DNA of 31,967 bases from an uncultured Hyphomicrobiales bacterium (GCA_964449645.1 CAYVBN010000353.1:1-31967), one strand, 5' to 3'; counted from the first letter of the stretch, positions 10,948 through 27,560 are shown. Program-made: numbers and translations. The notes: generated by a model from the letters alone, not told the origin.

Positions 10948-11793
10948 GTCGTGTGGACACTTATCGTGTCCATAGCACGATAGCTGCGAGAGTGACGACT
11001 GCGCGGTAATTTCGGGCGGTCTTTTCGAAGCGGGTTGCAACGCGTCGGAACTGCTTGAGCTTACTGAAACAGCATTCCACCAGATGTCGCTGGGCGTAGA
11101 GATGCTTGTCGAGCGGATATTTGAGCGCCCGTGACGGGTTGTTGGGAATCACGGCCAACGCTCCCTTGGCGGCGATGGCTTGCCGCAGGTGGTCCGCGTC
11201 ATAGGCTGTATCGGCCATGACGACCTCGGCGGGCAGTTCCTCGATCAGGGCTGCAGCTTGTGGTGCATCACCCTTCTGACCCGCGGTCAGTATGAACCGC
11301 ACGGGGCATCCCAAGCCTCGAACGGCCATGTGGATCTTGGTGCTCAGGCCGCCGCGCGAACGGCCGATGGCTTGATCTTCAGACCCCCTTTTTTAGCCCC
11401 GGCAGCGGGCTGATGGGCGCGGACGATGGTGGAATCAACGATCAGATATTCGAAGTCCGGATCATCGGACATCGCCTCGAAGATGCGCCACCAAACACCT
11501 TTGGTGCTCCAGCGACTGAAGCGCCGGAAAACGCTGTTCCAATCGCCAAACACCACGGGAAGATCACGCCAGGGCGCGCCCGTCCGCACAATCCATAGGA
11601 CGCCCTCCACGAACATTCGGTTGTCGCGTCCAGTTGATCCCCTTTGGTCGGGCCGGCCGATGATCAGCGGTGCCATCCGATCCCACGCCGCGTCGCTCAA
11701 AACCAAACGGTCCATCACACCCAAGACTGCCTCCCAAAACGCAGTCTTGAATCTGATTTGCCGCTTCAAGGGAATCCCAAGTGTCCACACGAC
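10948..11793 (-). mobile_element. IS5-family insertion sequence (IS427-group-like), 846 bp
   Basis: Perfect 15-bp terminal IRs GTCGTGTGGACACTT (10948-62)/AAGTGTCCACACGAC (11779-93), flanked by CTAG on both sides (10944-47, 11794-97). An alternative reading is 10947-11794 with a TA duplication. Confidence 0.92.
10961..11715 (-). CDS. IS5-family transposase, split orfA/orfB joined by a -1 frame change
   Basis: orfA is MDRLVLSDAAW...WIVRTGAPWRDLP...IVDSTIVRAH. orfB is GRSRGGLSTKIH...MADTAYD...RHLVECCFSKLKQFRRVATRFEK. A6G5 run at the junction (+ strand 11384-11394). Confidence 0.9.
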
Positions 11794-12374: not shown

Positions 12375-12758
12375 GTGCCCGACCGAGGCAAGAAGCGAGG
12401 CTGGAGCCCATTGCGGCGCATCACCGCCTGGGTCGTTGCCTATGCGCTTGTCCTCCACGCCATCCTCGGACTGGCGCCGCTCCACCACGAGGGCGGCCAC
12501 GCCCTCGCAACGGAGTTCTGCGCGGGCACCAGCGGACCCGGCACATCCGGCCACAGCGGCCAGTCGGGGCATTCCGGAAGCTGCTGCGACCTTTGCCTCG
12601 CCTGCGGTTGCGCGGCGTTCGTCGCTCCCGATGCTGTTCGTGCTACATCCGAGCCTTCGGACCCGGATCGCATTCGATGGTCGTCTCTGCATGACGTCGG
12701 GCGGTATCTCCCCGGACTGTTCAAGGAACAAGCCCGAGCACCTCCGCTGACGGCCTGA
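12375..12758 (+). CDS. DUF2946-family leader protein (CruR/CutF-like) with C-terminal RAPP motif
   Basis: GTG 12375 with GGAGG at 12364-68. Basic N-terminus, TM segment ITAWVVAYALVLHAILGL, EFC, CCDLCLACGC, and the end QARAPPLTA. Confidence 0.85.
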   Translation: MPDRGKKRGWSPLRRITAWVVAYALVLHAILGLAPLHHEGGHALATEFCAGTSGPGTSGHSGQSGHSGSCCDLCLACGCAAFVAPDAVRATSEPSDPDRIRWSSLHDVGRYLPGLFKEQARAPPLTA

Positions 12759-12810
12759 CATCGGCGGCTCGCCCGCCCCATTCGCCGTCTCACGCCATCG
12801 GCAGCGGAGG
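12741..12810 (+). promoter_or_regulatory. Predicted SD-sequestering mRNA structure between the DUF2946 leader and the next gene
   Basis: CCTCCGCTG (12741-49; the Pro-Pro-Leu codons) is the exact reverse complement of CAGCGGAGG (12802-10), which contains the SD of ATG 12816. Confidence 0.7.
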
Positions 12811-12815
12811 ACTTC

Positions 12816-13805
12816 ATGTCCATTCGTACGCTCCGCGCAGTCCTGCCGGGACTTGCGCTGATACTGGTTCCAAGCGGAATCCAAGCCCACGAGATCGTGG
12901 GCAAGAGATTCTTTCCGGCCACGCTCGCGATCGACGATCCCGGGGTCAACGACGAACTCGCCTTCCCGACCATCTCCGTCTTCAAGAACGAGGACGATCC
13001 TTCGGCTCGCGAGTTGGACGTCTCGGGAGAGTTCTCGAAACGCATCACCGAAGACTTCGCGGTTTCGTTCGAGCCCACCTGGACTCACCTCCGCGCTCCG
13101 GGCGGGCCGAACGGGACCGACGCATCGGGCTTCCAGAATCTCGAAACGACCTTCAAGTATCGCCTTTATAAAAATCCGACGCACGAGTTCGTGCTTTCGG
13201 CCGGCCTCAACGTCGAGTGGGGCGGCAGCGGCGCTCAGCAGGTCGGAGCCGAAAGCTTCACCACCTACACGCCAACGGTCTTTTTCGGCAAAGGCCTCGG
13301 CGACCTGCCGGAGACGCTGAACTGGGCCCGCCCGTTCGCGATCACCGGTCAGGTCGGCTATGCGATCCCGGGATCGAGATCGAGCACCACGTTCGATCCC
13401 GACACGGGCGATCTCGACTTCGAGCAGCACCCCGATGTCCTGGTCTGGGGCGCATCGCTCCAGTACAGCCTGCCCTATCTGAACGCCTCGGTGGTCGATC
13501 TCGGGCTGCCGGACTTCGTCAATCGGCTGATCCCGATCGTCGAGGTTGCGCTGCAGACGCCTGTCGCCAACACTTTGACCTCGGGCACGCTCACCACCGG
13601 AACGGTCAATCCCGGCGTGCTCTGGGTCGGCGACACTTACCAGGTCGGGCTCGAAGCGATGATCCCGATCAACCGGGCGAGCGGGACCAGCGTAGGCGCC
13701 ATCGCCCAGATCCATTTTTATCTCGACGACATCTTCCCCCATTCGATCGGCCGGCCGATCTTCGCCGTGTCCGACAGCACAGGGAGGCCGAGCTTCGGCA
13801 ACTGA
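12816..13805 (+). CDS. Uncharacterised exported protein, probable outer-membrane beta-barrel with mature N-terminal His
   Basis: Signal peptide ending GIQA|HEIVG. Alternating amphipathic strands such as LDVSGEFSKRIT, FAVSFEPTWTH, LETTFKYRLY, VWGASLQYS and YQVGLEAMIP. Confidence 0.7.
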   Translation: MSIRTLRAVLPGLALILVPSGIQAHEIVGKRFFPATLAIDDPGVNDELAFPTISVFKNEDDPSARELDVSGEFSKRITEDFAVSFEPTWTHLRAPGGPNGTDASGFQNLETTFKYRLYKNPTHEFVLSAGLNVEWGGSGAQQVGAESFTTYTPTVFFGKGLGDLPETLNWARPFAITGQVGYAIPGSRSSTTFDPDTGDLDFEQHPDVLVWGASLQYSLPYLNASVVDLGLPDFVNRLIPIVEVALQTPVANTLTSGTLTTGTVNPGVLWVGDTYQVGLEAMIPINRASGTSVGAIAQIHFYLDDIFPHSIGRPIFAVSDSTGRPSFGN

Positions 13806-13807
13806 CC

Positions 13808-14164
13808 ATGCGCATCACCACTCTCGTCATCGCAACCGTCGCGACCCTGCAGTTGGGAATGGCGGCCGCAAGCGCGCACGCGCATCTCGAGCGCGCCGAA
13901 CCGGCGGTCGGAAGCTCGGTGAAGACTCCTCCGCGCGAGGTCTCGATCCGGTTCACCCAGAAGCTCGAGCCGTCGTTCAGCACGATCGAGGTGACCGACG
14001 CGTCCGGAAAGCGCGTCGACAATGGCCGTGCCCGGATCACCGGCAACACCATGCAGGTCCCGCTCCAGCCGATCGGCGCAGGCACGTATCGGGTGAAGTG
14101 GCACGCCCTCTCGGTCGACAGCCACACCACCGAGGGCGATTTCACGTTCCGCGTCGGCCAATAA
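13808..14164 (+). CDS. copC: Periplasmic copper-binding protein CopC
   Basis: Signal peptide ending ASA|HAHLERAEP, then F...LEP and YRVKWHALSVDSHTTEGDFTFRV. Confidence 0.93.
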   Translation: MRITTLVIATVATLQLGMAAASAHAHLERAEPAVGSSVKTPPREVSIRFTQKLEPSFSTIEVTDASGKRVDNGRARITGNTMQVPLQPIGAGTYRVKWHALSVDSHTTEGDFTFRVGQ

Positions 14165-14195
14165 GCCACCCGCGCGGCAGTCCTCGAGACCACCC

Positions 14196-16151
14196 ATGGA
14201 CAACTTCCCGCTGATCGCCGTGCGCGCGGTCCACTTCGCCGCCACGGCGGTCAGCGGGGGCGTGGTGCTGTTCCTGGTGGCGGTCCTCCGGCCGGCTCTG
14301 GCCGAAACGCGAGAGGCCGAAGCCGACGCGGCAGAGTTTCACGCACGCTGCATCCGGCTTGCCTCTGGGAGCGTCGCGGTCGTTCTGGTGACGGCTCTCC
14401 TCTGGGCCATGCTGGAAGCCGCCGCCATGAGCGGCGAAAGCTTCGGTGCGGCGCTCAGGACCGGATTGCTCTGGACCGTATTGGGGCAGACGACGTTCGG
14501 CCTCTCCACCGATGTCCGGTTCGGTTTGGCCCTGCTGCTCGCCATCAGCCTGGCGCTGACCGGCGCGCACCGCGGCATGCTGTGGCTCGGCCTTGCGGCT
14601 GCCGCCGGCCTGCTCGGCGGGCTTGCCTGGACCGGCCATGCGGCGGCCACGGAGGGGTGGACCGGGACGCTGCACCGGGTTGCCGATGTCCTCCACCTTC
14701 TCGCCGCAGGCGCGTGGATCGGAAGCCTCGTTCCGCTGGCCATGGTCCTGACGATCGCCCGCCGGCGCGCCGATAGCCGCTGGGCCGCGATCGCGCGTGG
14801 CGCCACGGCCCGGTTCTCCACGATCGGCGTCATCAGCGTCGGCACGCTGCTCGCGACGGGAATCGTCAACACGTGGATCCTTTCCGGCACGCTGCCGGCG
14901 CTCTTCGGAACCGGTTACGGACACCTGCTGCTGATCAAGATCGGCCTGTTCGCCGCCATGGTGACGCTCGCGGCGGTCAACCGGCTGCGGCTGACGCCGC
15001 ACCTTGCCGATCCGCAAGGCAGCACATCGTGGCGGCACGCGTCGCACCGGTTGACGCGCAACGCCATCGCGGAGACCGCCTTGGGGCTGGCGATCTTCGC
15101 CGTGGTCGGCGCGCTGGGAATTCTCGTTCCCGGACTGCACGACCAGCCGACCTGGCCGTTTCCATATCGCCTCGCCGGCCAGTTCGCGGGCGATCCCGCG
15201 CTCGACGGCACGACGCTCCTCGCGCTGGGTGTGACCCTCGTGGGCATTTGTCTCATCGTCGGCGGCCTGTTCTGGCGCGAGATGCGCTGGCCGATGCTGA
15301 TCGGGGGCGCCGTGCTGGCCGCCAATTTCGGGACAGGCCTCGGCAGCCTGTTTGTGGAAGCATATCCGACGACCTTCTATGCCTCGCCCACCGGATATGC
15401 CGCCTCGTCGATCGCGCACGGCCGGGATCTGTTCGCCGAGCATTGCGTGGCGTGCCACGGCGTCGGCGGCCGGGGCGACGGTCCGGCCGCCGCCAACATG
15501 GCCATCAAGCCGGCCGACCTCGTTGCCGACCACGTCTACGCCCACACCGACGGCGACCTGTTCTGGTGGATCGGTCACGGCATCGGCACGGCCATGCCGG
15601 GCTTTGCCGCAGTGCTCGACGACGACGCCCGCTGGAATCTGGTCGATTTCATTCACGCGAATGCGGATGCGGCGCACCTGAAAGCGGCGGCCGGAACGGT
15701 CAGCGCGAACGGATATCCGGCCCCGACCTTCTCGGCCGACTGTCCCGATGGGTCGTCGATCTCGATCGAGGACCTGCACGGCCAGATCGTGCATGTGGCG
15801 GTGGGCGTCTTCTCACCGGACCTGATCAATGCCTTCGCGGAGCGCAGCCGCGCGGCCAGAACGGCGGCGATCCTGATCGCCCGTGATCCGCCGGCCGAAC
15901 TGCCTGCCGCGGTTTGCGCCGCCACGGACGAGAATGTCGTCCGCGTATTCGACCTCTACAGAACGATCGGCGCGGCGCCGGAGCGGACAACCGAGTTGCT
16001 GATCGACACCGGCGGATCGCTGCGCGCCCTGTGGTTCAGGGGCGTCCGCCCCGATTGGGCGAATCCTCCTGCTTTCGCACAGGTGGTCGAAACGCTCCGC
16101 GCAACGCCCGCGCAGCCGCGCAGCACCGGCGGCCATGCTCATCATCACTGA
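14196..16151 (+). CDS. copD: CopD-family inner-membrane protein fused to a cytochrome c domain and a redoxin-like domain
   Basis: RAVHF, LAWTGHAA, DVLHLLAAGAWIGSL, RFS, YGHLLLIK and AAVNR (CopD). CVACH (15444-58) plus AMPGF (cytochrome c). PAPTFS...ISIEDLHGQIVHV (redoxin-like). The protein ends HAHHH. Confidence 0.88.
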   Translation: MDNFPLIAVRAVHFAATAVSGGVVLFLVAVLRPALAETREAEADAAEFHARCIRLASGSVAVVLVTALLWAMLEAAAMSGESFGAALRTGLLWTVLGQTTFGLSTDVRFGLALLLAISLALTGAHRGMLWLGLAAAAGLLGGLAWTGHAAATEGWTGTLHRVADVLHLLAAGAWIGSLVPLAMVLTIARRRADSRWAAIARGATARFSTIGVISVGTLLATGIVNTWILSGTLPALFGTGYGHLLLIKIGLFAAMVTLAAVNRLRLTPHLADPQGSTSWRHASHRLTRNAIAETALGLAIFAVVGALGILVPGLHDQPTWPFPYRLAGQFAGDPALDGTTLLALGVTLVGICLIVGGLFWREMRWPMLIGGAVLAANFGTGLGSLFVEAYPTTFYASPTGYAASSIAHGRDLFAEHCVACHGVGGRGDGPAAANMAIKPADLVADHVYAHTDGDLFWWIGHGIGTAMPGFAAVLDDDARWNLVDFIHANADAAHLKAAAGTVSANGYPAPTFSADCPDGSSISIEDLHGQIVHVAVGVFSPDLINAFAERSRAARTAAILIARDPPAELPAAVCAATDENVVRVFDLYRTIGAAPERTTELLIDTGGSLRALWFRGVRPDWANPPAFAQVVETLRATPAQPRSTGGHAHHH

Positions 16152-16285
16152 CGACCGATCGCTCGAGCGAATGCGGCTCGGGGACCGTTGACCTCTTGCC
16201 TGCATCGCCCGCTTGATCCGCGGCCTACAAACCGCCGATAAACCGCGCTCGGGCGCGTTCCGGCGCCCACCGGACGAGGATCTCC

Positions 16286-16876
16286 ATGGCCGCAAAAAAG
16301 AAGCTCACGCCCCGCCTAGCGCCCCCCGACGAGGAGAAGCTGTCTCCGCGTCAGCGCGAACTCATCGACTCGATCCGTTCCGGCCCGCGCGGCAAGGTCA
16401 ATCTCGGGGGTCCGTTCGGGATCTATCTGCACGCGCCCGACTTCGGCGATCTCGCCCAGAAGCTCGGCGCCTTCTGCCGCTATGGGACGTCGGTCCCGCC
16501 GCGCCTGTCGGAGTTCGCCATCCTGGTGACCGCACGGCTCTGGCGCGCGCAGTACGAATGGTACGTTCACGCGCCGATTGCCGAGAAGGCCGGGGTATCG
16601 GCACGCACCATCAGCGACCTCAAGGCCGGCCGCGCGCCCAAATCCGCGCCCAAGGACGAGCGGGCGATTCACGACTTCATCAAGGAGCTCTACAAGAACC
16701 GCCGCGTCAGCGACCGCACCTATGCGCGCGTGCACGCCATCCTGGGCGACACTGGCATGGTCGAGTTCGCCGGGATTCTCGGCTACTACGCGCTCGTCGC
16801 CATGACCCTCGATGTGTTCCGCATTCCGATCGCCGAAGGGGCGGCCCTGCCCTTTTCCGAACCGAAGTCGGCCTGA
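16286..16876 (+). CDS. Carboxymuconolactone decarboxylase (CMD/AhpD-like) family protein
   Basis: GPF..YLHAP, PPRLSEFAILVTARLWRAQYEWYVHAPIA and GMVEFAGILGYYALVAMTL motifs. ATG follows a GAGG SD. Confidence 0.85.
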   Translation: MAAKKKLTPRLAPPDEEKLSPRQRELIDSIRSGPRGKVNLGGPFGIYLHAPDFGDLAQKLGAFCRYGTSVPPRLSEFAILVTARLWRAQYEWYVHAPIAEKAGVSARTISDLKAGRAPKSAPKDERAIHDFIKELYKNRRVSDRTYARVHAILGDTGMVEFAGILGYYALVAMTLDVFRIPIAEGAALPFSEPKSA

Positions 16877-16881
16877 ACACC

Positions 16882-16912
16882 TCCTCCGTCCGCCCGCCGG
16901 GCGGACGGAGGA
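16882..16912. terminator. 14-bp perfect hairpin between convergent genes (bidirectional terminator/stability element)
   Basis: TCCTCCGTCCGCCC-gcc-GGGCGGACGGAGGA; no U-tract. Confidence 0.6.
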
Positions 16913-16923
16913 TATCGACACGG

Positions 16924-17451
16924 TCAGTGCCCCGGCATGTTGCCCATGCTGCCCATGCCCTGCATGCCGGGTTTGGCGGGCGCCTGCGAGTTCTTCGGAC
17001 TTCCGCCGATCCCCTCGACCTCGTATTCGACGTCGACGCTGCCGGCCTTCTCGAATTTCAGCGTGCCCTTGATGTGCTGCCCTTTCTCGAGCGGCTGTTT
17101 CAAGCCCACGAACATGATGTGGTAGGAGCTGTTCGGCCCGAGCTCGACCGTTTCGCCGGGCTTGATTTCGAGACCGCCGGAGACCGGCCGCATCTTCATG
17201 ACGCCGCCGTCCATCTTCATCTCGTGCACCTCGAAACGCTGGGCGACGGCGGACGTGCCGCCGATCAGGCGATCCGGTTCGGTCCCCGAATTGGTGATCT
17301 TCATATATCCGGCCCCGACGCTTGCACCTTTCGGCGTGGCGCGCGACCAGGGGTGAGCGATTTCCAGAGGCCCGACCTTGTATCCCTGGGCGGATGCTGC
17401 GGTCGCGCCGAGCGCGAGCGCTGCCGCGAGAATCACAGTTGCGAATTTCAT
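16924..17451 (-). CDS. Periplasmic Cu(I) chaperone PCuAC
   Basis: ATG 17451 (MKFATVILAAALALGATAASA). HPWSRATP, GAGYMKITN and HEMKMDGGVMKMR...HIM (H-x-M...M...HxM) motifs, plus a Met-rich tail. Confidence 0.93.
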   Translation of the reverse strand: MKFATVILAAALALGATAASAQGYKVGPLEIAHPWSRATPKGASVGAGYMKITNSGTEPDRLIGGTSAVAQRFEVHEMKMDGGVMKMRPVSGGLEIKPGETVELGPNSSYHIMFVGLKQPLEKGQHIKGTLKFEKAGSVDVEYEVEGIGGSPKNSQAPAKPGMQGMGSMGNMPGH

Positions 17452-17458
17452 GTCGTTC

Positions 17459-17555
17459 GATCCCAATGTGAGCCGCCGTGCGCGGCGGCTGGCCTGAACA
17501 GGAGTTGACGTCTGCTTCAGGCGAGCGCAGGCGGGCCGCGCGCCGCATTGGGCTC
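17459..17555 (-). promoter_or_regulatory. Predicted structured leader junction sequestering the PCuAC ribosome-binding region
   Basis: On the minus strand, GAG-CCCAATG-CGG (17555-43) can pair with TCA-CATTGGG-ATC (17471-59). This encloses GCCTGAA/TTCAGGC and AGCCGCCG/CGGCGGCT hairpins. Confidence 0.5.
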
Positions 17556-17888
17556 CCGGCGTGCGGCCTGTCCAAGCGTCCCGGAGAGCACCTCGGGCCG
17601 CAGGACAGCGGAGTGCGGCGTCCGGACGACCGCGGGCGCTGGAGCGGATACGGGCGCGAGCCCGCCCGCGCACATTGGCATGGGACAGAGAAGGCACGCG
17701 TGTTCGACCGGATGGACGCGCCCAGGCGATCCGTCGGACTGCGGACCGAGGTTCGCGGTGCACAAGATGGTGAGCGCGCCGGGAACGGCCGCTTGCGCCA
17801 TCTGGAACGCCCCCAGCGACACCTGGAGCGCCAGCACGTAACAGAGGGCAAGCGCAACCGCGTTCGAGAGAGGCCGACGGGCTGTCAT
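17517..17888 (-). CDS. DUF2946-family leader protein with C-terminal RGPP motif
   Basis: N-terminal TM/signal (VALALCYVLALQVSLG), LTILC, HACLLCPMPMC and the end NAARGPPALA. It lies 65 nt upstream of PCuAC. Confidence 0.82.
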   Translation of the reverse strand: MTARRPLSNAVALALCYVLALQVSLGAFQMAQAAVPGALTILCTANLGPQSDGSPGRVHPVEHACLLCPMPMCAGGLAPVSAPAPAVVRTPHSAVLRPEVLSGTLGQAARREPNAARGPPALA

Positions 17889-17973: not shown

Positions 17974-19521
17974 TCAGTCCCAGTCCCAAGGAGGATAGCG
18001 CCGCTCGAGTTGGTATTGCTCGAGGAAGCACCAGAAGAACTCCGACAGGGGAGATACGGCGAAGCCCCGCGCCCGGTTGGAAGCGGCGACCAGGTAGAGG
18101 ATCCGCTGGTGCTCGAACGTCCGCCGCCAATTCTTCGTCAGCGACAGCCTGGGATCGAACAGATCGAGAGGATCGCCCCCGATCCCGCCGATTTCCAGGA
18201 TGGTAAAATCCTCCCCGCGCGCCAGCGCATCGAGCGAGCGGAAGCGGAGCTTGAACCGGCCGTAGTGAAACTCCGGCAGGTTGCGGGCGATAGCGTCGAG
18301 CTTCGCCTCGAGCTCCGGGGTCAGGCAGCCGGAGCCGTCCTGCGCAGAGCGGTCGGGCGCATCGTGGAGCACCAGCGCAAGAACCTGCCCGCGCGCTTCG
18401 CCGGGACAGCGCGCGTACAGCACGGTCGCCAATCCGGAGCCGGGCGCGTGCGCCTGCAGCATCAGCTTGCTGCCGGCGGGAAAGGCCGCCAAATAGGCCT
18501 GCAGCGCGGCGCGATCCTCGATGACCCGCACGCAACGGCCGTGCGCGCCCATATCGGGCTTTGCGACCAGCGGAAATGCGATCTGCTCCGTTTCGAGCAA
18601 TTGCAACGCGCGGTCCACGTCGAGCGCAAGCGTGGACGGATCGGCCCGGCGCCGCAGCACGACGAAATCGACGATCGAGCCGCGCATGTCGGCGGGCACC
18701 GCCAGGAGCCGCTCGCTCTTCGAATCCGCCCACAGGCCGCCGACCGGAAGCATCGGATTGGCGGCACTCGGCAGAGTGAAGGAACGATAGGCGACAGCAA
18801 GCCGGATCCAGTAAAACAGGACCGGCAGACGCAGGAGCCATGCAGGAACATGATGATGCGCCGCGAACGCGCCGGGGCTGCCGGAGATCGGACGTGGACT
18901 GTGCAATTTCGCACGGCCGGTCGCGCCCTCATCGTTGTCCGGCGGAGTCCTGTCGGTGAACGCCAGCACGCGTTCGCGCACGAACCCGACCGCCGCGAGC
19001 GCACCGAGCAGCGTCGGCCATGCCCACACGCCGAGGCGGTCGTCGAGCGCATCGCCGAAAACCGTGACCAGATAGAGGATGGGCGGCAGGTAGATCGCCG
19101 AGACCAGGAGGCTGGCCGCCGTGAAGCGGACGAGCGATACGCGCGCCCAGCCGCAGGCCACGAAGGCGACGAACACCAATCCGGGCACCAGCCGGCACAG
19201 GGCGACAAGCTCGAAGACGTTTCGCTTGAGCATATCGCCGAACCGGCAGACACGCTCGTCGACCGCGAGCGTTCGCAGCCAAGGCAAGGAGCGCGCTCCG
19301 GCGCCGACCGCATAGAGCGCGAAGTCGCTCACGACCATGCCGCCGTAAATGCTGCCCACCACCATGCCGGCGGGCATCAGATCGTTGACGATGATGTAGC
19401 CGCCCAGAACGATCGCCAGATCTTCGTGCGCGAACGGTAGCGCAACGAGCGAGACCACCTTGGCGAGCCAGGCAAGGTCGAAGCCCACCAGCTTGTGCAA
19501 CGCGGCCACGAAAGTGCCCAC
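17974..19521 (-). CDS. DedA/VTT membrane domain fused to an ATP-grasp-like domain
   Basis: N-terminal FAHEDLAIVLGG...SDFALYAVG...CRLVPGL (DedA). C-terminal FPLVAKPDMGAHGRCV...GRFKLRF...ILEIGG (ATP-grasp-like). Confidence 0.75.
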   Translation of the reverse strand: MGTFVAALHKLVGFDLAWLAKVVSLVALPFAHEDLAIVLGGYIIVNDLMPAGMVVGSIYGGMVVSDFALYAVGAGARSLPWLRTLAVDERVCRFGDMLKRNVFELVALCRLVPGLVFVAFVACGWARVSLVRFTAASLLVSAIYLPPILYLVTVFGDALDDRLGVWAWPTLLGALAAVGFVRERVLAFTDRTPPDNDEGATGRAKLHSPRPISGSPGAFAAHHHVPAWLLRLPVLFYWIRLAVAYRSFTLPSAANPMLPVGGLWADSKSERLLAVPADMRGSIVDFVVLRRRADPSTLALDVDRALQLLETEQIAFPLVAKPDMGAHGRCVRVIEDRAALQAYLAAFPAGSKLMLQAHAPGSGLATVLYARCPGEARGQVLALVLHDAPDRSAQDGSGCLTPELEAKLDAIARNLPEFHYGRFKLRFRSLDALARGEDFTILEIGGIGGDPLDLFDPRLSLTKNWRRTFEHQRILYLVAASNRARGFAVSPLSEFFWCFLEQYQLERRYPPWDWD

Positions 19522-21409: not shown

Positions 21410-21438
21410 ATTGCGCTCGCGTGACCTCTTGGCTATAC
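21410..21438 (+). promoter_or_regulatory. Putative sigma70 promoter of the acpXL cluster
   Basis: ATTGCG-N17-CTATAC resembles the alphaproteobacterial CTTGAC-N17-CTATAT consensus, about 100 nt upstream of acpXL. Confidence 0.4.
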
Positions 21439-21538
21439 GAACGCGCACGATGAGACGGCGGCCGGCTCCGGGGACCGGCCGGGGATGCCAGCGCGATCCG
21501 GCGCGGCTCGAAAATCTCCATCCTTCAGAGAGTTGCCG

Positions 21539-21820
21539 ATGTCTGCGACCTTCGACACCGTGGCCAATATCATCGCCGAGACGTGCGATATCCCGCGCGA
21601 CACGATCAAGCCGGAGAGCCACGCGATCGACGATCTCGGCATCGACAGCCTCGACTTCCTTGATATCGCCTTCGCAATCGACAAGGCCTTCGGCATCAAG
21701 CTGCCGCTCGAGCAATGGACACAGGAAGTCAACGACGGCAAAGCGACGACCGAGCAGTACTTCGTTCTGAAAAACCTCTGCGCGCGCATCGACGAGCTTG
21801 TTGCGGCCAAGGGCGCGTGA
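21539..21820 (+). CDS. acpXL: Specialised acyl carrier protein AcpXL
   Basis: [20 protein letters not shown]...[50 protein letters not shown]. Confidence 0.95.
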
Positions 21821-21835
21821 GCTGACGCGGCTTGC

Positions 21836-22312
21836 ATGCGCATCGAGTATTTCCAGCTCATCGATCGCATCGCCGAAATCGACGTTGATGCCCGGCGCAT
21901 CCGCGCCATCGCGACCGTTCCGCAGACCAGCACGATTTTCGAGGGCCACTTCCCCGGCCATCCGTTGATGCCTGGCGTCCTGCTCATCGAGACGATGGCG
22001 CAGACGTCCGGCTGGCTGGTGATCGGGCTGACGCGGTTCGAGCGGATGCCGTTCCTTGCCGCCGTCAAGGAGGCGAAGTTCCGCCGCTTCGTCACGCCGG
22101 GCGAAGTGCTGTCGGTCGAGGCCGAGCTGGTGCACGACGGGTCCGGATTTGCGGTGACGCACGCCCGGATCGTCGCCAACGGAGAGAAGCCCGTTTGCGA
22201 AGCGGAAATCCGGCTGCGGGTCATGCCGTTTCCCAATCCGGACTTCCGTAGCGGCATGCTGGACTACGCCCGACGGCTGCAATTCCCGCTCGGAGCGACG
22301 GCCGATGGCTGA
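21836..22312 (+). CDS. fabZXL: 3-hydroxyacyl-ACP dehydratase of the VLCFA cluster
   Basis: FQLIDRI and FEGHFPGHPLMPGVLLIETMAQ motifs, in the position after acpXL. Confidence 0.9.
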   Translation: MRIEYFQLIDRIAEIDVDARRIRAIATVPQTSTIFEGHFPGHPLMPGVLLIETMAQTSGWLVIGLTRFERMPFLAAVKEAKFRRFVTPGEVLSVEAELVHDGSGFAVTHARIVANGEKPVCEAEIRLRVMPFPNPDFRSGMLDYARRLQFPLGATADG

Positions 22313-23498
22313 CATGGCACGCGAGGCTTGGATCACCGGCATCGGCATTCTGTCCTGCCTCGGCGAAGGGCCGGAGGCGCACTGGCAAGGGCTGATGGAC
22401 GGCAAGCCGCACGTCGACGTGGACACGTTCGCGCCGTGCATCGTCCATCCGCTGCCGACGGTCGATTTCGACAAGCAGATCCCCAAGAAGGGCGATCAGC
22501 GCCAGATGGAGCCCTGGCAGCGGATCGGTACCTATGCGGCCGGCCTCGCGCTCGACAGTGCCGGCGTCAAGGGCCAGGCCGAACTGCTCGCCCGCATGGA
22601 CATGATCGTCGCCGCCGGCGGCGGTGAGCGGGACGTGACGGTCGACGCGGCGATCCTCAGCGGGATGCCGAAGGCCGACAATCCGGACCGGTTCCTCAAC
22701 GAGCGGCTGATGAACGATCTGCGCCCGACGCTGTTCCTGGCGCAGCTTTCGAACCTGCTCGCCGGCAACATCTCGATCGTGCACGGCGTGACGGGCTCCT
22801 CGCGCACGTTCATGGGCGAGGAAGCCGCCGGCTTCGACGCCGTGCGCATCTCCCTCACGCGCATCCTCGCCGGCCAGAGCGACATCGCGCTCGTCGGCGG
22901 CGCTCACAACGGCGAGCGCAAGGACATGCAGATGCTCTACGAGTTCGGCGGGTTCAACCTGAAGGGCGCGTTCCGTCCGGTCTGGGAGCGCGCGCCGCAG
23001 GGCGGCTTTGCGCTCGGATCACTGGGCGCCTTCCTGGTGATCGAGGATCGCGCACATGCCGAGGCCCGCGGGGCGAAGCCGTACGCACGCCTCTGTTCGA
23101 TCGCGACCGAGCGGTCGCACCGTCAGCCGGGAGCGGTCACGGCCGCGCTGCAGAGCCTCTGGGAGAAGATCGCCGGACGGCTGCAGCCCGGACGATGCGC
23201 CATCATTTCCGGCGCGACGGGCGCCGAGCCCGCAACGACCGAGGAGCGGGATTTCCTGCGCCAGCATCCGGATATCCCGGTGCGCGCTACCGGCACGCTG
23301 CTCGGGCACGGACCGGAACCGCAATTCGCGATGAACATCGCCATTGCGGCGCTCGCGGTGAGCCGGGGTAAACTGTTCCCGCCGCAGGACGGCTCGGGGC
23401 TCGAGCAGCCGATGGATGGGCCGATCACCCAGGCCGTGGTGACAGGCGTGGGACATTGGCGCGGTGAAGGCATGGCCCTCGTCGAAGCCGTGCATTGA
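22305..23498 (+). CDS. fabF2XL: Beta-ketoacyl-ACP synthase-like protein lacking the catalytic Cys
   Basis: WITGIG, KKGDQRQMEPWQRIGTYAAGLAL and RPTLFLAQLSNLLAGNISI motifs. TFMGEEAAG stands where active synthases have TACASG. Confidence 0.88.
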   Translation: MADMAREAWITGIGILSCLGEGPEAHWQGLMDGKPHVDVDTFAPCIVHPLPTVDFDKQIPKKGDQRQMEPWQRIGTYAAGLALDSAGVKGQAELLARMDMIVAAGGGERDVTVDAAILSGMPKADNPDRFLNERLMNDLRPTLFLAQLSNLLAGNISIVHGVTGSSRTFMGEEAAGFDAVRISLTRILAGQSDIALVGGAHNGERKDMQMLYEFGGFNLKGAFRPVWERAPQGGFALGSLGAFLVIEDRAHAEARGAKPYARLCSIATERSHRQPGAVTAALQSLWEKIAGRLQPGRCAIISGATGAEPATTEERDFLRQHPDIPVRATGTLLGHGPEPQFAMNIAIAALAVSRGKLFPPQDGSGLEQPMDGPITQAVVTGVGHWRGEGMALVEAVH

Positions 23499-23509
23499 GG
23501 AGAACACCT

Positions 23510-24790
23510 ATGGCAGCGATGCGCGACAAGGCAGGCCGGCCCGTCGTCGCAGTGACCGGCATGGGCGTCGTCACGTCGCTCGGCGCCGGCAAGAGCGAGA
23601 ATTGGAACAGGCTCGTCGCCGGCCAATCCGGCATCCGCGCCATCACGCGTTTCCCCACCGACGGGCTGAAAACGCGCGTCGCTGGCACCATCGATTTCGT
23701 CGCTGTCGACCCGCTCGTGGCCCCGCAGCTCGCCGAGCGGCTGGCCGAGATCGCGATCGAAGAAGCGATCACGGAATCCGCGATCGACACGGCCGGCAGT
23801 TTTCCCGGACCGCTCTTTCTCGCGGTGGCCCCGATCGAGATCGAATGGCCACAGCGCGCCGAACTCGCCAAGGCGTCGGGATCGAACGAGGCCGTGACCT
23901 ACGACCACCTCATCCGCGCCGCCGGCGGCGGGCGCTTTCGCCCGTTTCACGACCGTTTCCTGTTCGGTTCGGTCGGCGACCACCTGGCCGACAAGTTTGG
24001 AACCCGCGGCACGCCCATTTCGCTCTCGACGGCGTGCGCCTCGGGCGCAAGCGCCATCCAGCTCGGGCTCGAGGCGATCCGCCGCGGCGAGGCGGATGCG
24101 GCGCTGTGCGTCGCGACCGACGGCTCGGTCAATCCCGAAAGCCTGGTGCGCTTTTCGCTCCTGTCGGCGCTCTCGACCCAGAATGATCCGCCGGAGGCGG
24201 CCCCCAAGCCGTTCGCCAAGAATCGCGACGGCTTCGTGATGGCCGAAGGCGCGGGCGCCCTCGTGCTGGAGAACTACGACAGCGCCAAGGCGCGCGGCGC
24301 GAAGATTCTCGGCATCATCGAGGGCTGCGGCGAGCTCGCCGACTCCTTCCACCGCACCCGCTCAAGCCCCGACGGAAAGCCGATCATCGGCTGCATGCGC
24401 AACGCGATCGCCGATGCGGGGCTCGAGCCCGACGCCATCGACTACATCAACGCACACGGGACCGGCACGCCCGAGAACGACAAGATGGAATGTCTCGGTG
24501 TCACGACCGTGTTCGGCGAGCGCATCAAGGACATCCCGATCTCCTCGAATAAATCGATGATCGGGCACACGCTCTCGGCCGCAGGCGCCGTCGAGGCGGT
24601 GATCTCGCTTCTCACTCTCGATCGTCAGCGCATTCCGCCGACCATCAACTACAAGGTCCCCGACCCCGCCATTCCGCTCGACGTCGTCCCGAACACCGCG
24701 CGCGACGCGCGCATCACCCACGCGATCTCCAACTCGTTCGGTTTCGGCGGCCAAAACGTCTCGCTCGTGATGGCGCGAGAGCCGGCCTGA
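23510..24790 (+). CDS. fabF1XL: Beta-ketoacyl-ACP synthase (active-site intact)
   Basis: ATG 23510 follows GAGGAG. STACASG, NAHGTGT, KSMIGHTL and SNSFGFGG motifs. Confidence 0.92.
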   Translation: MAAMRDKAGRPVVAVTGMGVVTSLGAGKSENWNRLVAGQSGIRAITRFPTDGLKTRVAGTIDFVAVDPLVAPQLAERLAEIAIEEAITESAIDTAGSFPGPLFLAVAPIEIEWPQRAELAKASGSNEAVTYDHLIRAAGGGRFRPFHDRFLFGSVGDHLADKFGTRGTPISLSTACASGASAIQLGLEAIRRGEADAALCVATDGSVNPESLVRFSLLSALSTQNDPPEAAPKPFAKNRDGFVMAEGAGALVLENYDSAKARGAKILGIIEGCGELADSFHRTRSSPDGKPIIGCMRNAIADAGLEPDAIDYINAHGTGTPENDKMECLGVTTVFGERIKDIPISSNKSMIGHTLSAAGAVEAVISLLTLDRQRIPPTINYKVPDPAIPLDVVPNTARDARITHAISNSFGFGGQNVSLVMAREPA

Positions 24791-25554
24791 TGACATCTGC
24801 TGCCGCTCGGCGCGTTCTGGTGACGGGCGGCGGACGCGGCCTCGGCACCGCCATCGTGCGGGCGCTGGCGCAAGCGGGTCACGATGTCACCTTCACGTAT
24901 CGCTCGGCCGCCGCGGATGCCGAGGCGCTGCTCGCGGAGCTCGGCGCGGCCTATCCGCGGCAGACCTTCGCGGCGCATAGCGTCGATCTCGCCGACAAAG
25001 CGGCGGTGGAAACCTTTGCGAAGGTGCTGGACAGCGAGACGCCCTACTCCGGTTTCGTGCACAACGCCGGGCAGTCCTACGACGCGCTCGCCATGATGAT
25101 GGACCAGGACAAGGCCGAGCAGGCGATGCAGGTGAACTTCTGGTCCTTCGCGCGGATCGCCAGCGTGCTCGTGCGGCCGATGATGCGCGCGCGCGACGGG
25201 CGGATCGCAGCGATCGGATCGGTCACCGCCCTGCAGGCCAACCAGGGCAATGCCGCCTACGCGGCCTCGAAATCCGCGCTTCTCGGCTATGTGCGCACGC
25301 TCGCGGTCGAAACGGCGCGCAGCGGCGTGACGGCCAACTACGTGGCGCCGGGCTTCATCGACACCGCCATGGTCGCGCCTTACGCAAAATATCGCGAGCA
25401 GATGGAAAGCCAGATCCCGGCGCGCCGCTTCGCCCGCCCGGACGAGATCGCCGGGGTCGTCGCCTTCCTGCTGTCGCCGCAGGCGACCTACGTCACCGGG
25501 TCGGTGTTGACCGTTGACGGCGGGCTTTCGGCAGCGATAGGCATCCATCGCTAA
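24790..25554 (+). CDS. SDR-family FabG-like 3-oxoacyl-ACP reductase
   Basis: TGGGRGLG, HNAG, S...YAASK, VAPGFIDT and TGSVLTVDGG motifs. TGATG coupling to fabF1XL. Confidence 0.88.
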   Translation: MTSAAARRVLVTGGGRGLGTAIVRALAQAGHDVTFTYRSAAADAEALLAELGAAYPRQTFAAHSVDLADKAAVETFAKVLDSETPYSGFVHNAGQSYDALAMMMDQDKAEQAMQVNFWSFARIASVLVRPMMRARDGRIAAIGSVTALQANQGNAAYAASKSALLGYVRTLAVETARSGVTANYVAPGFIDTAMVAPYAKYREQMESQIPARRFARPDEIAGVVAFLLSPQATYVTGSVLTVDGGLSAAIGIHR

Positions 25555-25586
25555 TCCCCGACAACGACGCCCGGACACACGATCTC

Positions 25587-26609
25587 ATGCGTGCGCTTAC
25601 CCTTGTCGCCGACCGGAAGCTCGAGTTGCGCGACGTCGAGCCGCCCCCGCCTCCCGGTCCCGGCGAGGTGCAGGTGCGCGTCAAGGCCGTGGCTCTCAAC
25701 CACATCGACGTATGGGGTTTCCGCGGCATGGCGTTCGCGAAGCGCAAGCTGCCGCTCGTGGTCGGCGCGGAAGCCGCCGGCGAAATCGCCGCGCTCGGTC
25801 CCGGCGTCGACGGCTTCGCCCCCGGGGATCCGGTCGTGATGTACGGCGCCATGACCTGCGCGACCTGCAAGGCCTGCCGCGAAGGCCGCGACAATCTGTG
25901 CGAGAACGTCCAAGGCATCATGGGCTTCCACATCGACGGCTTCGCGCGCGACCTGCTCAATCTGCCGGCGCGGCTGACGATCCCGGTGCCCAAGGGCGTC
26001 GCGCTTCGCGATGCCGCGTGCGCGCCGATCGCGTTTTCGACGGTCGAGCACATGCTGTTCGACAATGCCAAGCTCCAGCCCGGCGAGACGGTCCTGGTGC
26101 ATGCCGGCGGCTCCGGCATCGGCACCGCCGCGATCCGCATGGCCAAGGCGATCGGCTGCACCGTCATCACGACGGTGGGCGACGACACCAAGGCCGAGAA
26201 GGCGAAGGCGCTCGGGGCCGATCACGTGATCAACTACCGGACCGACCGGTTCGAGCACCTGGTGCGGAAGATCACTGCCAAGAAGGGCGTCGACGTCGTG
26301 TTCGAGCACGTCGGGGCCGAGACGTTCAACGGCTCGCTTCTGTCGCTCAAGCGCGGCGGCCGGCTCGTCACCTGCGGATCGACCTCGGGCCCGACAACGA
26401 CCATCAACCTGATGCAGCTCTTCCAGCAACAGTACAAGATCTTCGGCTCGTTCGGCGCCTCAATGCGCAACATTCGCGACGCGCTCGCCAAGATGGCGGA
26501 CGGCATCCTTCCGGTGATCGACACGGAAGTCGATCTGGCCGATCTCGAGCAGGGTCTCGCGCGTCTCGAGAGCCGCCAGGTGTTCGGCAAGGTGATCGTG
26601 CGGTTCTGA
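25587..26609 (+). CDS. adhA2XL: Zn-binding MDR-family oxidoreductase of the VLCFA cluster
   Basis: CATCKAC...NLC structural Zn site and HAGGSGIG nucleotide-binding loop, in the syntenic position before lpxXL. Confidence 0.85.
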   Translation: MRALTLVADRKLELRDVEPPPPPGPGEVQVRVKAVALNHIDVWGFRGMAFAKRKLPLVVGAEAAGEIAALGPGVDGFAPGDPVVMYGAMTCATCKACREGRDNLCENVQGIMGFHIDGFARDLLNLPARLTIPVPKGVALRDAACAPIAFSTVEHMLFDNAKLQPGETVLVHAGGSGIGTAAIRMAKAIGCTVITTVGDDTKAEKAKALGADHVINYRTDRFEHLVRKITAKKGVDVVFEHVGAETFNGSLLSLKRGGRLVTCGSTSGPTTTINLMQLFQQQYKIFGSFGASMRNIRDALAKMADGILPVIDTEVDLADLEQGLARLESRQVFGKVIVRF

Positions 26610-26621
26610 CGAGCGGCAACG

Positions 26622-27560
26622 ATGCGCATGAGCTTCAAGCGGTTTGCGCGGCGACTCGCCGCCGCAACCAAGCCGGCGGTGGACGCGGCGGCCGGACGCC
26701 TCGCCGTCGGGCTGCTCGCGGTGATCCGCCGGTTCAAGCGCGAACGGATCAGCGACATTCTCGGCGCCGGGATGCGCAGGATCGGTCCGTGGCTGCCGGA
26801 GCATCGGATTGGCCGCGCCAATCTCGCGGCCGCCTTCCCGCAGATGCCGCCGGAGGAGATCGAGCGGATTCTTGCCGGCGTCTGGGACAACCTCGGGCGT
26901 CTTGCCGCCGAGTTCGCCTTTCTCGACCGGCTGCGCATCCCCGAGGTCCCGGACCAGCCCGCCGCCGTGGCGGACATCACCTACGATCGCGCCACCTACG
27001 ACCGCTTCCTGCGGCTACGCTCCGAACGCAAGCCGGCGCTCGTCTTCGCCGCCCATCTCGCCAATTGGGAGCTTCCGGCGCTCGTCGCCGGCGTGCACGG
27101 GCTCGATGCAGTCGTGCTCTATCGCCGCCCCAATCTCGGCGCGGTGGCCGATGCGGTGATGCAGATCCGGCAGACCAGCATGGTGCAGATGGTGCCGACG
27201 AGCCTCTCGGCGCCGCTGAAGCTGGCACGTGCGCTCGAGGCCGGCCGCCTCGCCGCAATGCTCGTCGACCAGCATTACGTGAAAGGCGTCGAGGTCACGT
27301 TCTTTGGCCGTCGCTGTCTCGCCAATCCGCTGATCGCCGCGCTCGCCCGGCAGATCGAATGCCCGATCTACGGCACGCGCGTCGTCCGGCTGCCCGGCCA
27401 CCGCTTTCGCGCGGAGATCAGCGAGGCCATCCCGCCGGTGCGCGACGCCGAGGGCCGCATCGACGTGCAAGGCACAATGCAGGCGATCACTTCGGTGATC
27501 GAGGGCTGGGTGCGCGAGCACCCCGAGCAATGGCTGTGGCTGCACCGGCGCTGGCGCTGA
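26622..27560 (+). CDS. lpxXL: Lipid A very-long-chain fatty acyltransferase
   Basis: HLANWE, YRRPN, MLVDQ and PEQWLWLHRRWR motifs (LpxL family), at the end of the acpXL cluster. Confidence 0.9.
   Translation: MRMSFKRFARRLAAATKPAVDAAAGRLAVGLLAVIRRFKRERISDILGAGMRRIGPWLPEHRIGRANLAAAFPQMPPEEIERILAGVWDNLGRLAAEFAFLDRLRIPEVPDQPAAVADITYDRATYDRFLRLRSERKPALVFAAHLANWELPALVAGVHGLDAVVLYRRPNLGAVADAVMQIRQTSMVQMVPTSLSAPLKLARALEAGRLAAMLVDQHYVKGVEVTFFGRRCLANPLIAALARQIECPIYGTRVVRLPGHRFRAEISEAIPPVRDAEGRIDVQGTMQAITSVIEGWVREHPEQWLWLHRRWR

Follow-up and report, generated by a model that had tools for sequence, protein, structure and literature searches.

A 5.5-kb region (positions 12375-17888) of a 31,967-nucleotide (nt) stretch from an uncultured Hyphomicrobiales bacterium (GCA_964449645.1, CAYVBN010000353.1:1-31967; the whole stretch is hereafter the window) holds two sets of copper genes, each headed by a small, putatively exported protein that ends shortly after an RAPP or RGPP motif. 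The two open reading frames (ORFs), ORF1 and ORF2, almost certainly belong to the DUF2946 (CruR/CutF) family of leaders, and the last codons of ORF1 pair with the next gene's Shine-Dalgarno (SD) sequence in a helix that covaries across relatives. Family membership, conservation at the peptide level and the covarying helix are observations; the mechanism proposed from them, in which a ribosome arrested near the end of the leader would open that helix when copper is scarce, has in our estimate a probability of about 0.5-0.6. The source organism is a Xanthobacteraceae metagenome-assembled genome (MAG), and a sister assembly, GCA_035548255.1, encodes 99%-identical proteins. The region consists of two converging transcription units, ORF1-'barrel'-CopC-CopD-CMD on the + strand and ORF2-PCuAC on the - strand:

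12375-12758, + strand: ORF1, predicted DUF2946/CruR-type leader of 127 amino acids (aa) (Pfam PF11162, leader profile)
12816-13805, + strand: 'barrel', secreted all-beta protein of 329 aa, first gene after ORF1, of an uncharacterised family
13808-14164, + strand: CopC, periplasmic copper-binding protein (PF04234, E = 1e-24)
14196-16151, + strand: CopD (inner-membrane copper protein) with a cytochrome c and an unassigned C-terminal part, 651 aa (PF05425, PF13442, PF00034)
16286-16876, + strand: CMD (AhpD-like) family protein, convergent with PCuAC (PF02627)
16924-17451, - strand: PCuAC (PcuC-type), periplasmic Cu(I) chaperone (PF04314, E = 4e-38)
17452-17516, - strand: spacer between ORF2 and PCuAC, 65 nt, with two hairpins and a weak SD
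17517-17888, - strand: ORF2, predicted DUF2946-family leader of 123 aa (leader profiles)

The gap from the ORF1 stop to the start of 'barrel' (12816) is 57 nt, and that from ORF2 to the start of PCuAC (17451) is 65 nt; a first-pass annotation of this DNA had reported both ORFs and both distances to copper genes, and they lie where it placed them. It had also named PCuAC, CopC and CopD, with which the Pfam and NCBIfam matches agree, the CopD part matching NCBIfam NF033808 at 226 bits over residues 5-312.

Within the window, the two leaders stand out by their ends. Only ORF1 and ORF2 end in R[AG]PP among 280 six-frame ORFs (2/280), and although the motif occurs five times in the 46,584 residues of these ORFs, it is C-terminal in these two only. 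Hidden Markov models (HMMs) from two separately built leader sets likewise match only ORF1 and ORF2 among the 280. Because leaders evolve too fast for direct search, relatives were reached through neighboring genes, at 80 genomic loci found with the 'barrel' protein and 80 metagenomic loci found with PCuAC; word-indexed protein searches had returned no relatives with ORF1 and one with ORF2, and a full HMMER scan with ORF1 only five. The order 'barrel'-CopC-CopD is identical in 80/80 barrel loci, and an ORF ending in R[AG]PP lies directly upstream in 79 of 81 (window included), with exactly three residues after PP in 76 of these 79 leaders. At the PCuAC loci, 44 of the 72 with enough upstream DNA have a leader ending in R[AG]PP plus two to four residues. 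Each of the four motif residues is written with synonymous codons (CGA/CGC/CGT/AGA; GGT/GGC/GGG or GCG/GCT/GCA; CCT/CCG/CCA/CCC), which argues for selection on the peptide. Moreover, 41 of 48 sampled leaders match PF11162 (DUF2946) at E <= 0.01, and the 48 share six invariant columns: Cys49, Cys71, Cys74, Arg121, Pro123 and Pro124 in ORF1 numbering. The spacing from CxxC to Arg is 43-48 residues in nearly all leaders that bear a CxxC, with one outlier of 27, and an Ala precedes the Arg in 77 of 79 leaders, within flanks specific to subfamilies (SNAQ-A, PKL-A or HQPxxS). Elsewhere conservation is very low, with columns averaging 36% identity and pairs of leaders 17-31%. Strong selection at the peptide level acts on the motif, on how far it lies from the stop and on the CxxC spacing. 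As a side observation, the motif codons look unusual for genomes of about 65% GC: of 79 leaders, 35 write the Arg as CGA and 25 the Gly as GGT, and the first Pro is CCT in 36 of them and CCA in 16. In the ARGPP class, CGA GGU CCU CC holds an SD-like GAGGU directly before an anti-SD CCUCC.

ORF1 starts with GTG, 7 nt after a GGAGG, and its C-terminus is QARAPPLTA, followed by the stop. Its parts are as follows:

12420-12476, + strand: predicted hydrophobic export signal or signal anchor, residues 16-34 (19-aa Kyte-Doolittle maximum 2.07)
12519-12611, + strand: cysteines, C49 and the cluster C70 C71 D L C74 L A C77 G C79 (C49, C71 and C74 invariant in 48 leaders)
12735-12746, + strand: RAPP codons CGA GCA CCT CCG, then three sense codons and the stop (motif kept in relatives)

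A basic stretch, KKRGWSPLRR, precedes the hydrophobic segment, and the hydrophobic N-termini of ORF1 (ITAWVVAYALVLHAILGLA) and ORF2 (AVALALCYVLALQVSLGAF) have a mean Kyte-Doolittle value of about 2.1; the export signals of both were judged from hydrophobicity and the basic n-region only. In ORF1, 46 residues separate the CxxC (C71-D-L-C74) from Arg121. Against PF11162 it barely passes, with 23.8 bits for a cut-off of 23.7 over the full length (1-117/117), and a profile of 72 barrel-operon leaders matches it at E = 9e-13, the PCuAC-leader profile at 9e-8. The exact ORF1 sequence has no database match, and in the annotation of the sister MAG its homolog is uncalled, a 656-nt gap standing upstream of 'barrel' (L162:4682-5337). 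Gene callers systematically overlook such leaders.

ORF2 ends in AARGPPALA before its stop, with the RGPP codons at 17529-17540. Its signal peptide is predicted to end at AQA, before an A, and its cysteines are C43 and C65xxC68xxxxC73 (cluster 17670-17696), with 48 residues from the CxxC (C65-L-L-C68) to the Arg. Its match to PF11162 is full length and below the cut-off (12.7 bits, E = 0.23), and the barrel-operon and PCuAC-leader profiles find it at E = 3.5e-7 and 7.7e-8. ORF2 appears from these matches to be a genuine but divergent DUF2946 leader, and module 2 (ORF2 and PCuAC) seems to be headed by the same kind of leader as module 1 (ORF1 and 'barrel'). Both ORFs have the hydrophobic N-terminus and CXXC spacing of the DUF2946 family, the motif with three residues behind it (RAPP + LTA, RGPP + ALA) and copper genes downstream. 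Their assignment to the DUF2946/CruR type with an RAPP-class motif, made at first from the DNA alone, has therefore stood the HMM check, ORF1 through Pfam itself and ORF2 through profiles of homologs.

The RNA between ORF1 and 'barrel' is predicted to fold into a long-range helix that hides the SD of the second gene:

12741-12754, + strand: 5' arm of the SD-sequestering helix, CCUCCGCU followed by GACGGC (duplex -25.1 kcal/mol, minimum-free-energy (MFE) fold, covariation)
12763-12777, + strand: GC-rich hairpin inside the long-range helix, GGCGG-CUCGC-CCGCC (MFE fold)
12784-12810, + strand: 3' arm, GCCGUC (12784-12789) and AGCGGAGG (12803-12810), including the SD GGAGG (12806-12810) of 'barrel'

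In the free mRNA of the window the predicted unpaired probability of this SD is 0.00-0.02, and the SD is predicted to be paired in 71 of 78 loci; the hairpin equivalent to that at 12763-12777 (GGCC/GGCC) is 93% paired across loci. Over 75 loci, 79% of cells in the core helix are paired, as against 32-45% in slid registers, and compensatory changes occur at four pairs; for example, the second Pro codon, CCG or CCA, goes with a C or U before GGAG. A three-helix model of the ARAPP subfamily (30 sequences, window included), which spans from the first Pro codon to the stop, reaches 83.7% paired versus 30-47% when slid, and contains 25 double-sided changes, a number reached in 0/500 shuffles; even the stop, UGA or UAA, covaries with its C or U partner. 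In an alignment-free test, cognate arms pair at -15.9 kcal/mol versus -12.5 for non-cognate ones (0/5000 permutations as low). Module 1 thus has a covarying SD-sequestering helix suited to translational control in the manner of SecM or CutF. The footprint of a ribosome with the first Pro in its P site would reach about +13 to +16 nt and so coincide exactly with the 5' arm. The comparative data thereby offer a plausible structural reason for the fixed tail of three residues after RAPP, namely that the tail codons are the anti-SD arm that a stalled ribosome would cover.

In the commonest subfamily of PCuAC leaders, the last sense codon and the stop (UCCUGAC) pair with the SD (GUCAGGAG), and cognate duplexes of these leaders reach -14.7 kcal/mol versus -12.3 for non-cognate ones (0/5000 permutations as low). 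At ORF2 in the window, the stop codon lies within a hairpin, GCCUGAA/UUCAGGC (17522-17516 with 17498-17492), a second hairpin, GCCGCCG-CGCA-CGGCGGC, occupies 17489-17472, and the weak SD UGGGAU (17465-17460) has as its predicted partner CCCAAUG, located 12-18 nt upstream of the codon for the first Pro. The MFE fold of module 2 has z = -1.07, below significance; the only close relative is 99% identical.

Leaders of this family have been studied in two organisms in particular. CruR (Bp2923) of Bordetella pertussis undergoes an RAPP-dependent arrest that is relieved by copper and acts through Rho (Roy et al. 2022, PMC9426467). Its family has an export signal in >95% of members and a CXXC about 45 residues from the C-terminal motif, and operons headed by cruR homologs include PCuAC, ScoC, YcnI and CopC (PMC9426467). 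Like CruR, ORF1 and ORF2 are, by prediction, small exported proteins standing first in a copper-acquisition operon, with a semi-conserved first Cys and a CXXC, and their spacings of 46 and 48 residues agree with the CruR rule. Unlike CruR, which precedes a TonB-dependent transporter over a 162-nt spacer and works by Rho-dependent termination, they lie 57 and 65 nt from their neighbors, and in module 1 the last codons of the leader pair with the SD of the next gene; the immediate target there is an uncharacterised secreted beta protein, followed by CopC and CopD. In CutF of Rhodobacter capsulatus, stalling melts a stem-loop that shields an SD (Öztürk et al. 2021, 2023, 2025), and the protein itself is undetectable in cells (Öztürk et al.). 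Among the most frequent neighbors of CutF-like genes, OEP is followed by PCuAC-like chaperones together with TonB-like proteins (Öztürk et al. 2023, PMC9973294). Common to CutF and the leaders here are the DUF2946 family, a Sec signal, a Cys motif and a C-terminal proline motif at which stalling opens, here by prediction, an SD structure in a short spacer. However, the Cys motif of CutF is CxxxC and its PPP requires elongation factor P (EF-P), whereas ORF1 and ORF2 both have CxxC and two prolines only, within RAPP or RGPP. Copper induces the stalling of CutF, whose target is the detoxifying oxidase CutO, whereas uptake and chaperone genes follow here; in addition, the 5' arm of the helix is here the coding sequence itself.

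As for the motifs themselves, RAPP and RGPP give the most robust arrest and are EF-P-refractory (Fujiwara et al. 2025, PMC12992588). They are enriched at the C-termini of small secretory upstream ORFs that precede PCu(A)C, YcnI and TonB receptors, and RAPP-like motifs are otherwise purged from proteomes (PMC12992588). Both ORFs carry the R-A/G-P-P core of this class near the C-terminus of a small, predicted secretory protein with a co-directional gene downstream, as do ApdA, ApdP and SecM (RAGP), and the unmasking of a downstream SD is common to SecM and, as predicted, to module 1. ApdA, ApdP and SecM monitor Sec/YidC and precede sec genes; the leaders here instead carry putative metal-binding cysteines and precede copper genes, not genes of the Sec/YidC pathway. 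ORF1 and ORF2 share motif class and working principle with Apd/SecM but are not of that family.

The mechanism that we favor would run as follows. The exported leader would present a nascent chain with its Cys cluster while the R-A/G-P-P motif, three codons before the stop, is being translated, and the ribosome would stall while its P site holds R-A/G-P and its A site Pro-tRNA. The stalled ribosome would cover the remaining 15-17 nt of the leader ORF, which in module 1 means the 5' arm at 12741-12754, whose partner at 12784-12810 holds the SD of 'barrel'. Prompt termination would let the helix re-form and shut translation, with Rho-dependent polarity on the untranslated mRNA as a possible reinforcing layer. 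Scarce copper would thus mean stalling and expression, and copper bound to the Cys cluster would release the stall and turn the operon off. This copper-off direction is the most likely one because the targets serve copper acquisition and cuproenzyme loading and the architecture of the peptide matches that of CruR, although we infer the direction, like stalling and copper sensing themselves, by analogy.

Several points weigh against this mechanism. Single-sequence folds have unremarkable z-scores (-1.6 for module 1, -1.1 for module 2), and RNAalifold, run on MAFFT alignments, missed the helix of module 1, yielding either nothing or an unconvincing structure; explicit pair counts and cognate/non-cognate duplexes were used in its place because bulges shift the register between subfamilies. 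The helix was drawn by eye from the same sequences, which favors it in the comparison with slid registers, and relatedness among the sequences inflates the shuffle control. Masking the footprint of the stalled ribosome lifts the mean accessibility of the SD from 0.12 to 0.24 only, with values >0.5 in 3 loci. In the window, the SD has a second partner, CUCCGC at 12831-12836 (codons 6-7 of 'barrel'), and its accessibility stays at about 0.01-0.02 when masked. At ORF2, the pairing typical of its family, UCCUGAC with GUCAGGAG, is absent and the SD is weak. Furthermore, RAPP alone is insufficient for arrest and the upstream context matters (PMC12992588). We infer stalling, copper binding and regulation from known systems, and the copper response could run the opposite way, as it does in CutF.

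Among other explanations of the two leaders, a polarity of the CruR type deserves most attention, though we consider it rather unlikely as the main mode of control. Transcription would then end through Rho in the stretch that separates the leader from the gene behind it; a stalled ribosome would block Rho until copper released it, and the SD helix would be secondary. CruR, with the same architecture (CXXC, about 45 residues, RAPP, three residues), does work through Rho (PMC9426467), and masking the footprint opens the SD only modestly in silico. On the other hand, the spacers of 57 and 65 nt with their GC-rich hairpins contrast with 162 nt in CruR, and a pure Rho model has no need of a helix between leader end and SD that covaries. 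Rho polarity and SD unmasking are not mutually exclusive. A polarity of the CutF type, in which copper would induce or prolong the stall and the downstream genes would be switched on at high periplasmic copper for detoxification or sequestration, is unlikely. It draws on CutF, where copper induces stalling that opens an SD-shielding stem-loop, and on CopC and CopD having first been named as copper-resistance proteins (Pfam description). However, CutF uses an EF-P-dependent PPP, whereas the leaders here have the EF-P-refractory RAPP/RGPP of the CruR type, and their targets, an importer-type CopCD and a PcuC-type chaperone, are tied to copper limitation in Bradyrhizobium.

The predicted export signals and conserved cysteines would also suit stable periplasmic copper binders (chaperones or PcuA-like proteins), in which case the RAPP tail and the helix would only couple translation and sense nothing. 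We regard this as improbable: beyond three Cys and the RAPP tail, conservation is very low and database searches find almost no relatives, which is typical of leader peptides rather than of folded proteins, and CutF is undetectable in cells while RAPP-like motifs are purged from proteomes (PMC12992588). Finally, high-GC genomes give many spurious ORFs, and ORF1 is uncalled in the sister assembly, so the two could in principle be chance ORFs with a fortuitous C-terminal motif. This is refuted, its probability being negligible, by the conservation of the leader with synonymous codon change at 79/81 and 44/72 loci, by HMM matches specific to these two ORFs in the window, and by the Pfam matches of 41/48 leaders.

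The first-pass annotation had read the convergent pair as one arrangement, in which two sensors tune uptake and cuproenzyme loading separately. The synteny survey shows that both modules also occur apart. The sister MAG has the same twin layout, split over two contigs. Two loci (L123 and L125) share the right-hand context of the window, that is, the acpXL lipid A cluster, a small membrane protein, leader-PCuAC and a convergent CMD, and have no barrel operon beside leader-PCuAC. In about 30 of the 80 barrel loci, a co-directional PCuAC gene follows copD directly or stands between copC and copD, the place behind copD being that of most PCuAC genes near barrel operons. A second leader was not found in 73 of the 80; seven, all in Bradyrhizobium, have a second RAPP/RGPP leader in tandem or divergent orientation:

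L031:12402-12800, second leader
L053:12398-12796, second leader
L060:12399-12797, second leader
L061:12906-13379, second leader
L076:8248-8658, second leader
L067:9023-9514, - strand, second leader
L066:1286-1684, - strand, second leader (contig too short for a downstream gene)

A conserved two-part system was rejected on the grounds of L123 and L125 and of the 73 barrel loci; the convergent pair is a juxtaposition of two independently existing modules. At the six second-leader loci with a readable downstream gene, that gene encodes a TonB-dependent receptor of 750-860 aa. In L053 and L076, leader and receptor are followed by genes for PCuAC, one more periplasmic protein and a CopC/CopD-like product, an order that fits pcuABCDE of Bradyrhizobium japonicum/diazoefficiens, in which case PcuA, reportedly annotated as a periplasmic protein, would presumably be a DUF2946 leader. 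Like this operon, the window has a PCuAC with the Met/His-rich tail of PcuC (C-terminus ...PGMQGMGSMGNMPGH); unlike it, the window is without a TonB receptor, and its PCuAC is the only gene behind ORF2. In B. japonicum, copper starvation induces the PcuB/PcuC operon and PcuC is needed under copper limitation (Serventi et al. 2012, as cited in PMC6669012 and bioRxiv 2025.09.05.674415).

The first pass had known of no description of the paired arrangement or of control over a copCD-type operon. DUF2946/RAPP leaders upstream of PCuAC, CopC, YcnI and TonB receptors are already published, and the main ideas of that annotation were therefore right but not new. The leaders open no new category of regulation. 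Two modest points may be new: that the immediate targets form a family of unannotated secreted proteins at the head of CopC/CopD operons, and that a CruR-type peptide is combined with a SecM/CutF-type SD helix that uses the leader's own tail as its 5' arm. Nascent-peptide copper sensing would thereby be extended to operons that begin with an unannotated gene and are for that reason invisible to annotation-based surveys. The 'barrel' family has >6,000 homologs in soil metagenomes and is almost always headed by such a leader (79/81 loci sampled), and cultivable Bradyrhizobium and Nitrobacter strains, among them Bradyrhizobium macuxiense (L023), B. cytisi (L053) and Nitrobacter sp. JJSN (L058), have the same arrangement, which makes the model easy to test. 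In a broader joint reading, a CruR-type peptide would be wired to a SecM-type switch in which the final 14-17 nt of the leader serve as 5' arm, explaining the three codons after PP. It would regulate the 'barrel'-CopC-CopD operon of soil Xanthobacteraceae and Bradyrhizobium, and probably pcuABCDE too, and the two Cys sets would give uptake and cuproenzyme loading copper thresholds that differ. We offer this joint reading tentatively, and as a whole it is somewhat doubtful.

The genes behind ORF1 had been described as a barrel-copC-copD fusion. This was rejected: they are three separate ORFs (12816-13805, 13808-14164 and 14196-16151), and the sole fusion is that of CopD with cytochrome c. The cytochrome c occupies residues ~400-490 of this protein, followed by ~160 unassigned residues; the sister MAG carries the same fusion, and in 80 related loci tblastn covers only the first ~310-330 residues of the window protein. 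The barrel nature of the first gene is unproven, since a Pfam, NCBIfam or PDB (profile search) match was not found for it and its AlphaFold model, although all-beta, has a pLDDT of 36, too poor to justify a fold search. Its family is very abundant, with at least 6,146 matches at E <= 1e-5 among 8,000 candidates scored, beside 442 genome matches. The top matches are in Pseudolabrys, Bradyrhizobium and Nitrobacter, and among the 120 homologs listed there were no Pfam matches. In an alignment of these proteins, HEIVG at the mature N-terminus and the motif IDDPGV never vary. A CMD/AhpD-like gene is convergent to leader-PCuAC in many metagenomic loci, namely L081, L096, L100, L113, L123, L125, L153, L154 and L159, which points to a functional link of CMD with the PCuAC module, perhaps through thiol or peroxide chemistry.

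The reported lack of a CueR, CsoR or CopRS regulator is borne out by domain searches, which found metal-regulator domains in none of the window's genes. A sigma-70 promoter scan found none, terminator matches occurred at background rate, and Rfam gave no match at the gathering score and chance-level matches only at E <= 1.

Beside module 1 lies an IS5-family element (10961-11790, - strand) with a DUF4096 N-terminal ORF and a DDE transposase ORF, probably joined by a frameshift; it is absent at the matching place in the sister MAG, which has different genes there. On the far side of module 2, a 515-aa protein (17974-19521, - strand) has a DedA/VTT membrane domain, and its C-terminal half is RimK/ATP-grasp-like. 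With its end 85 nt upstream of ORF2 and the strand shared, the gene could be co-transcribed with ORF2; L123 and L125 lack it at the corresponding place. Further on, an acpXL-lpxXL-type cluster (21425-27560, + strand) encodes an acyl carrier protein, FabZ, two ketoacyl synthases, an SDR, a Zn-ADH and a lipid A acyltransferase. It serves the synthesis of lipid A with very-long-chain fatty acids, typical of Rhizobiales, and is unrelated to the leaders, and it fixes the taxonomic neighborhood of the window.

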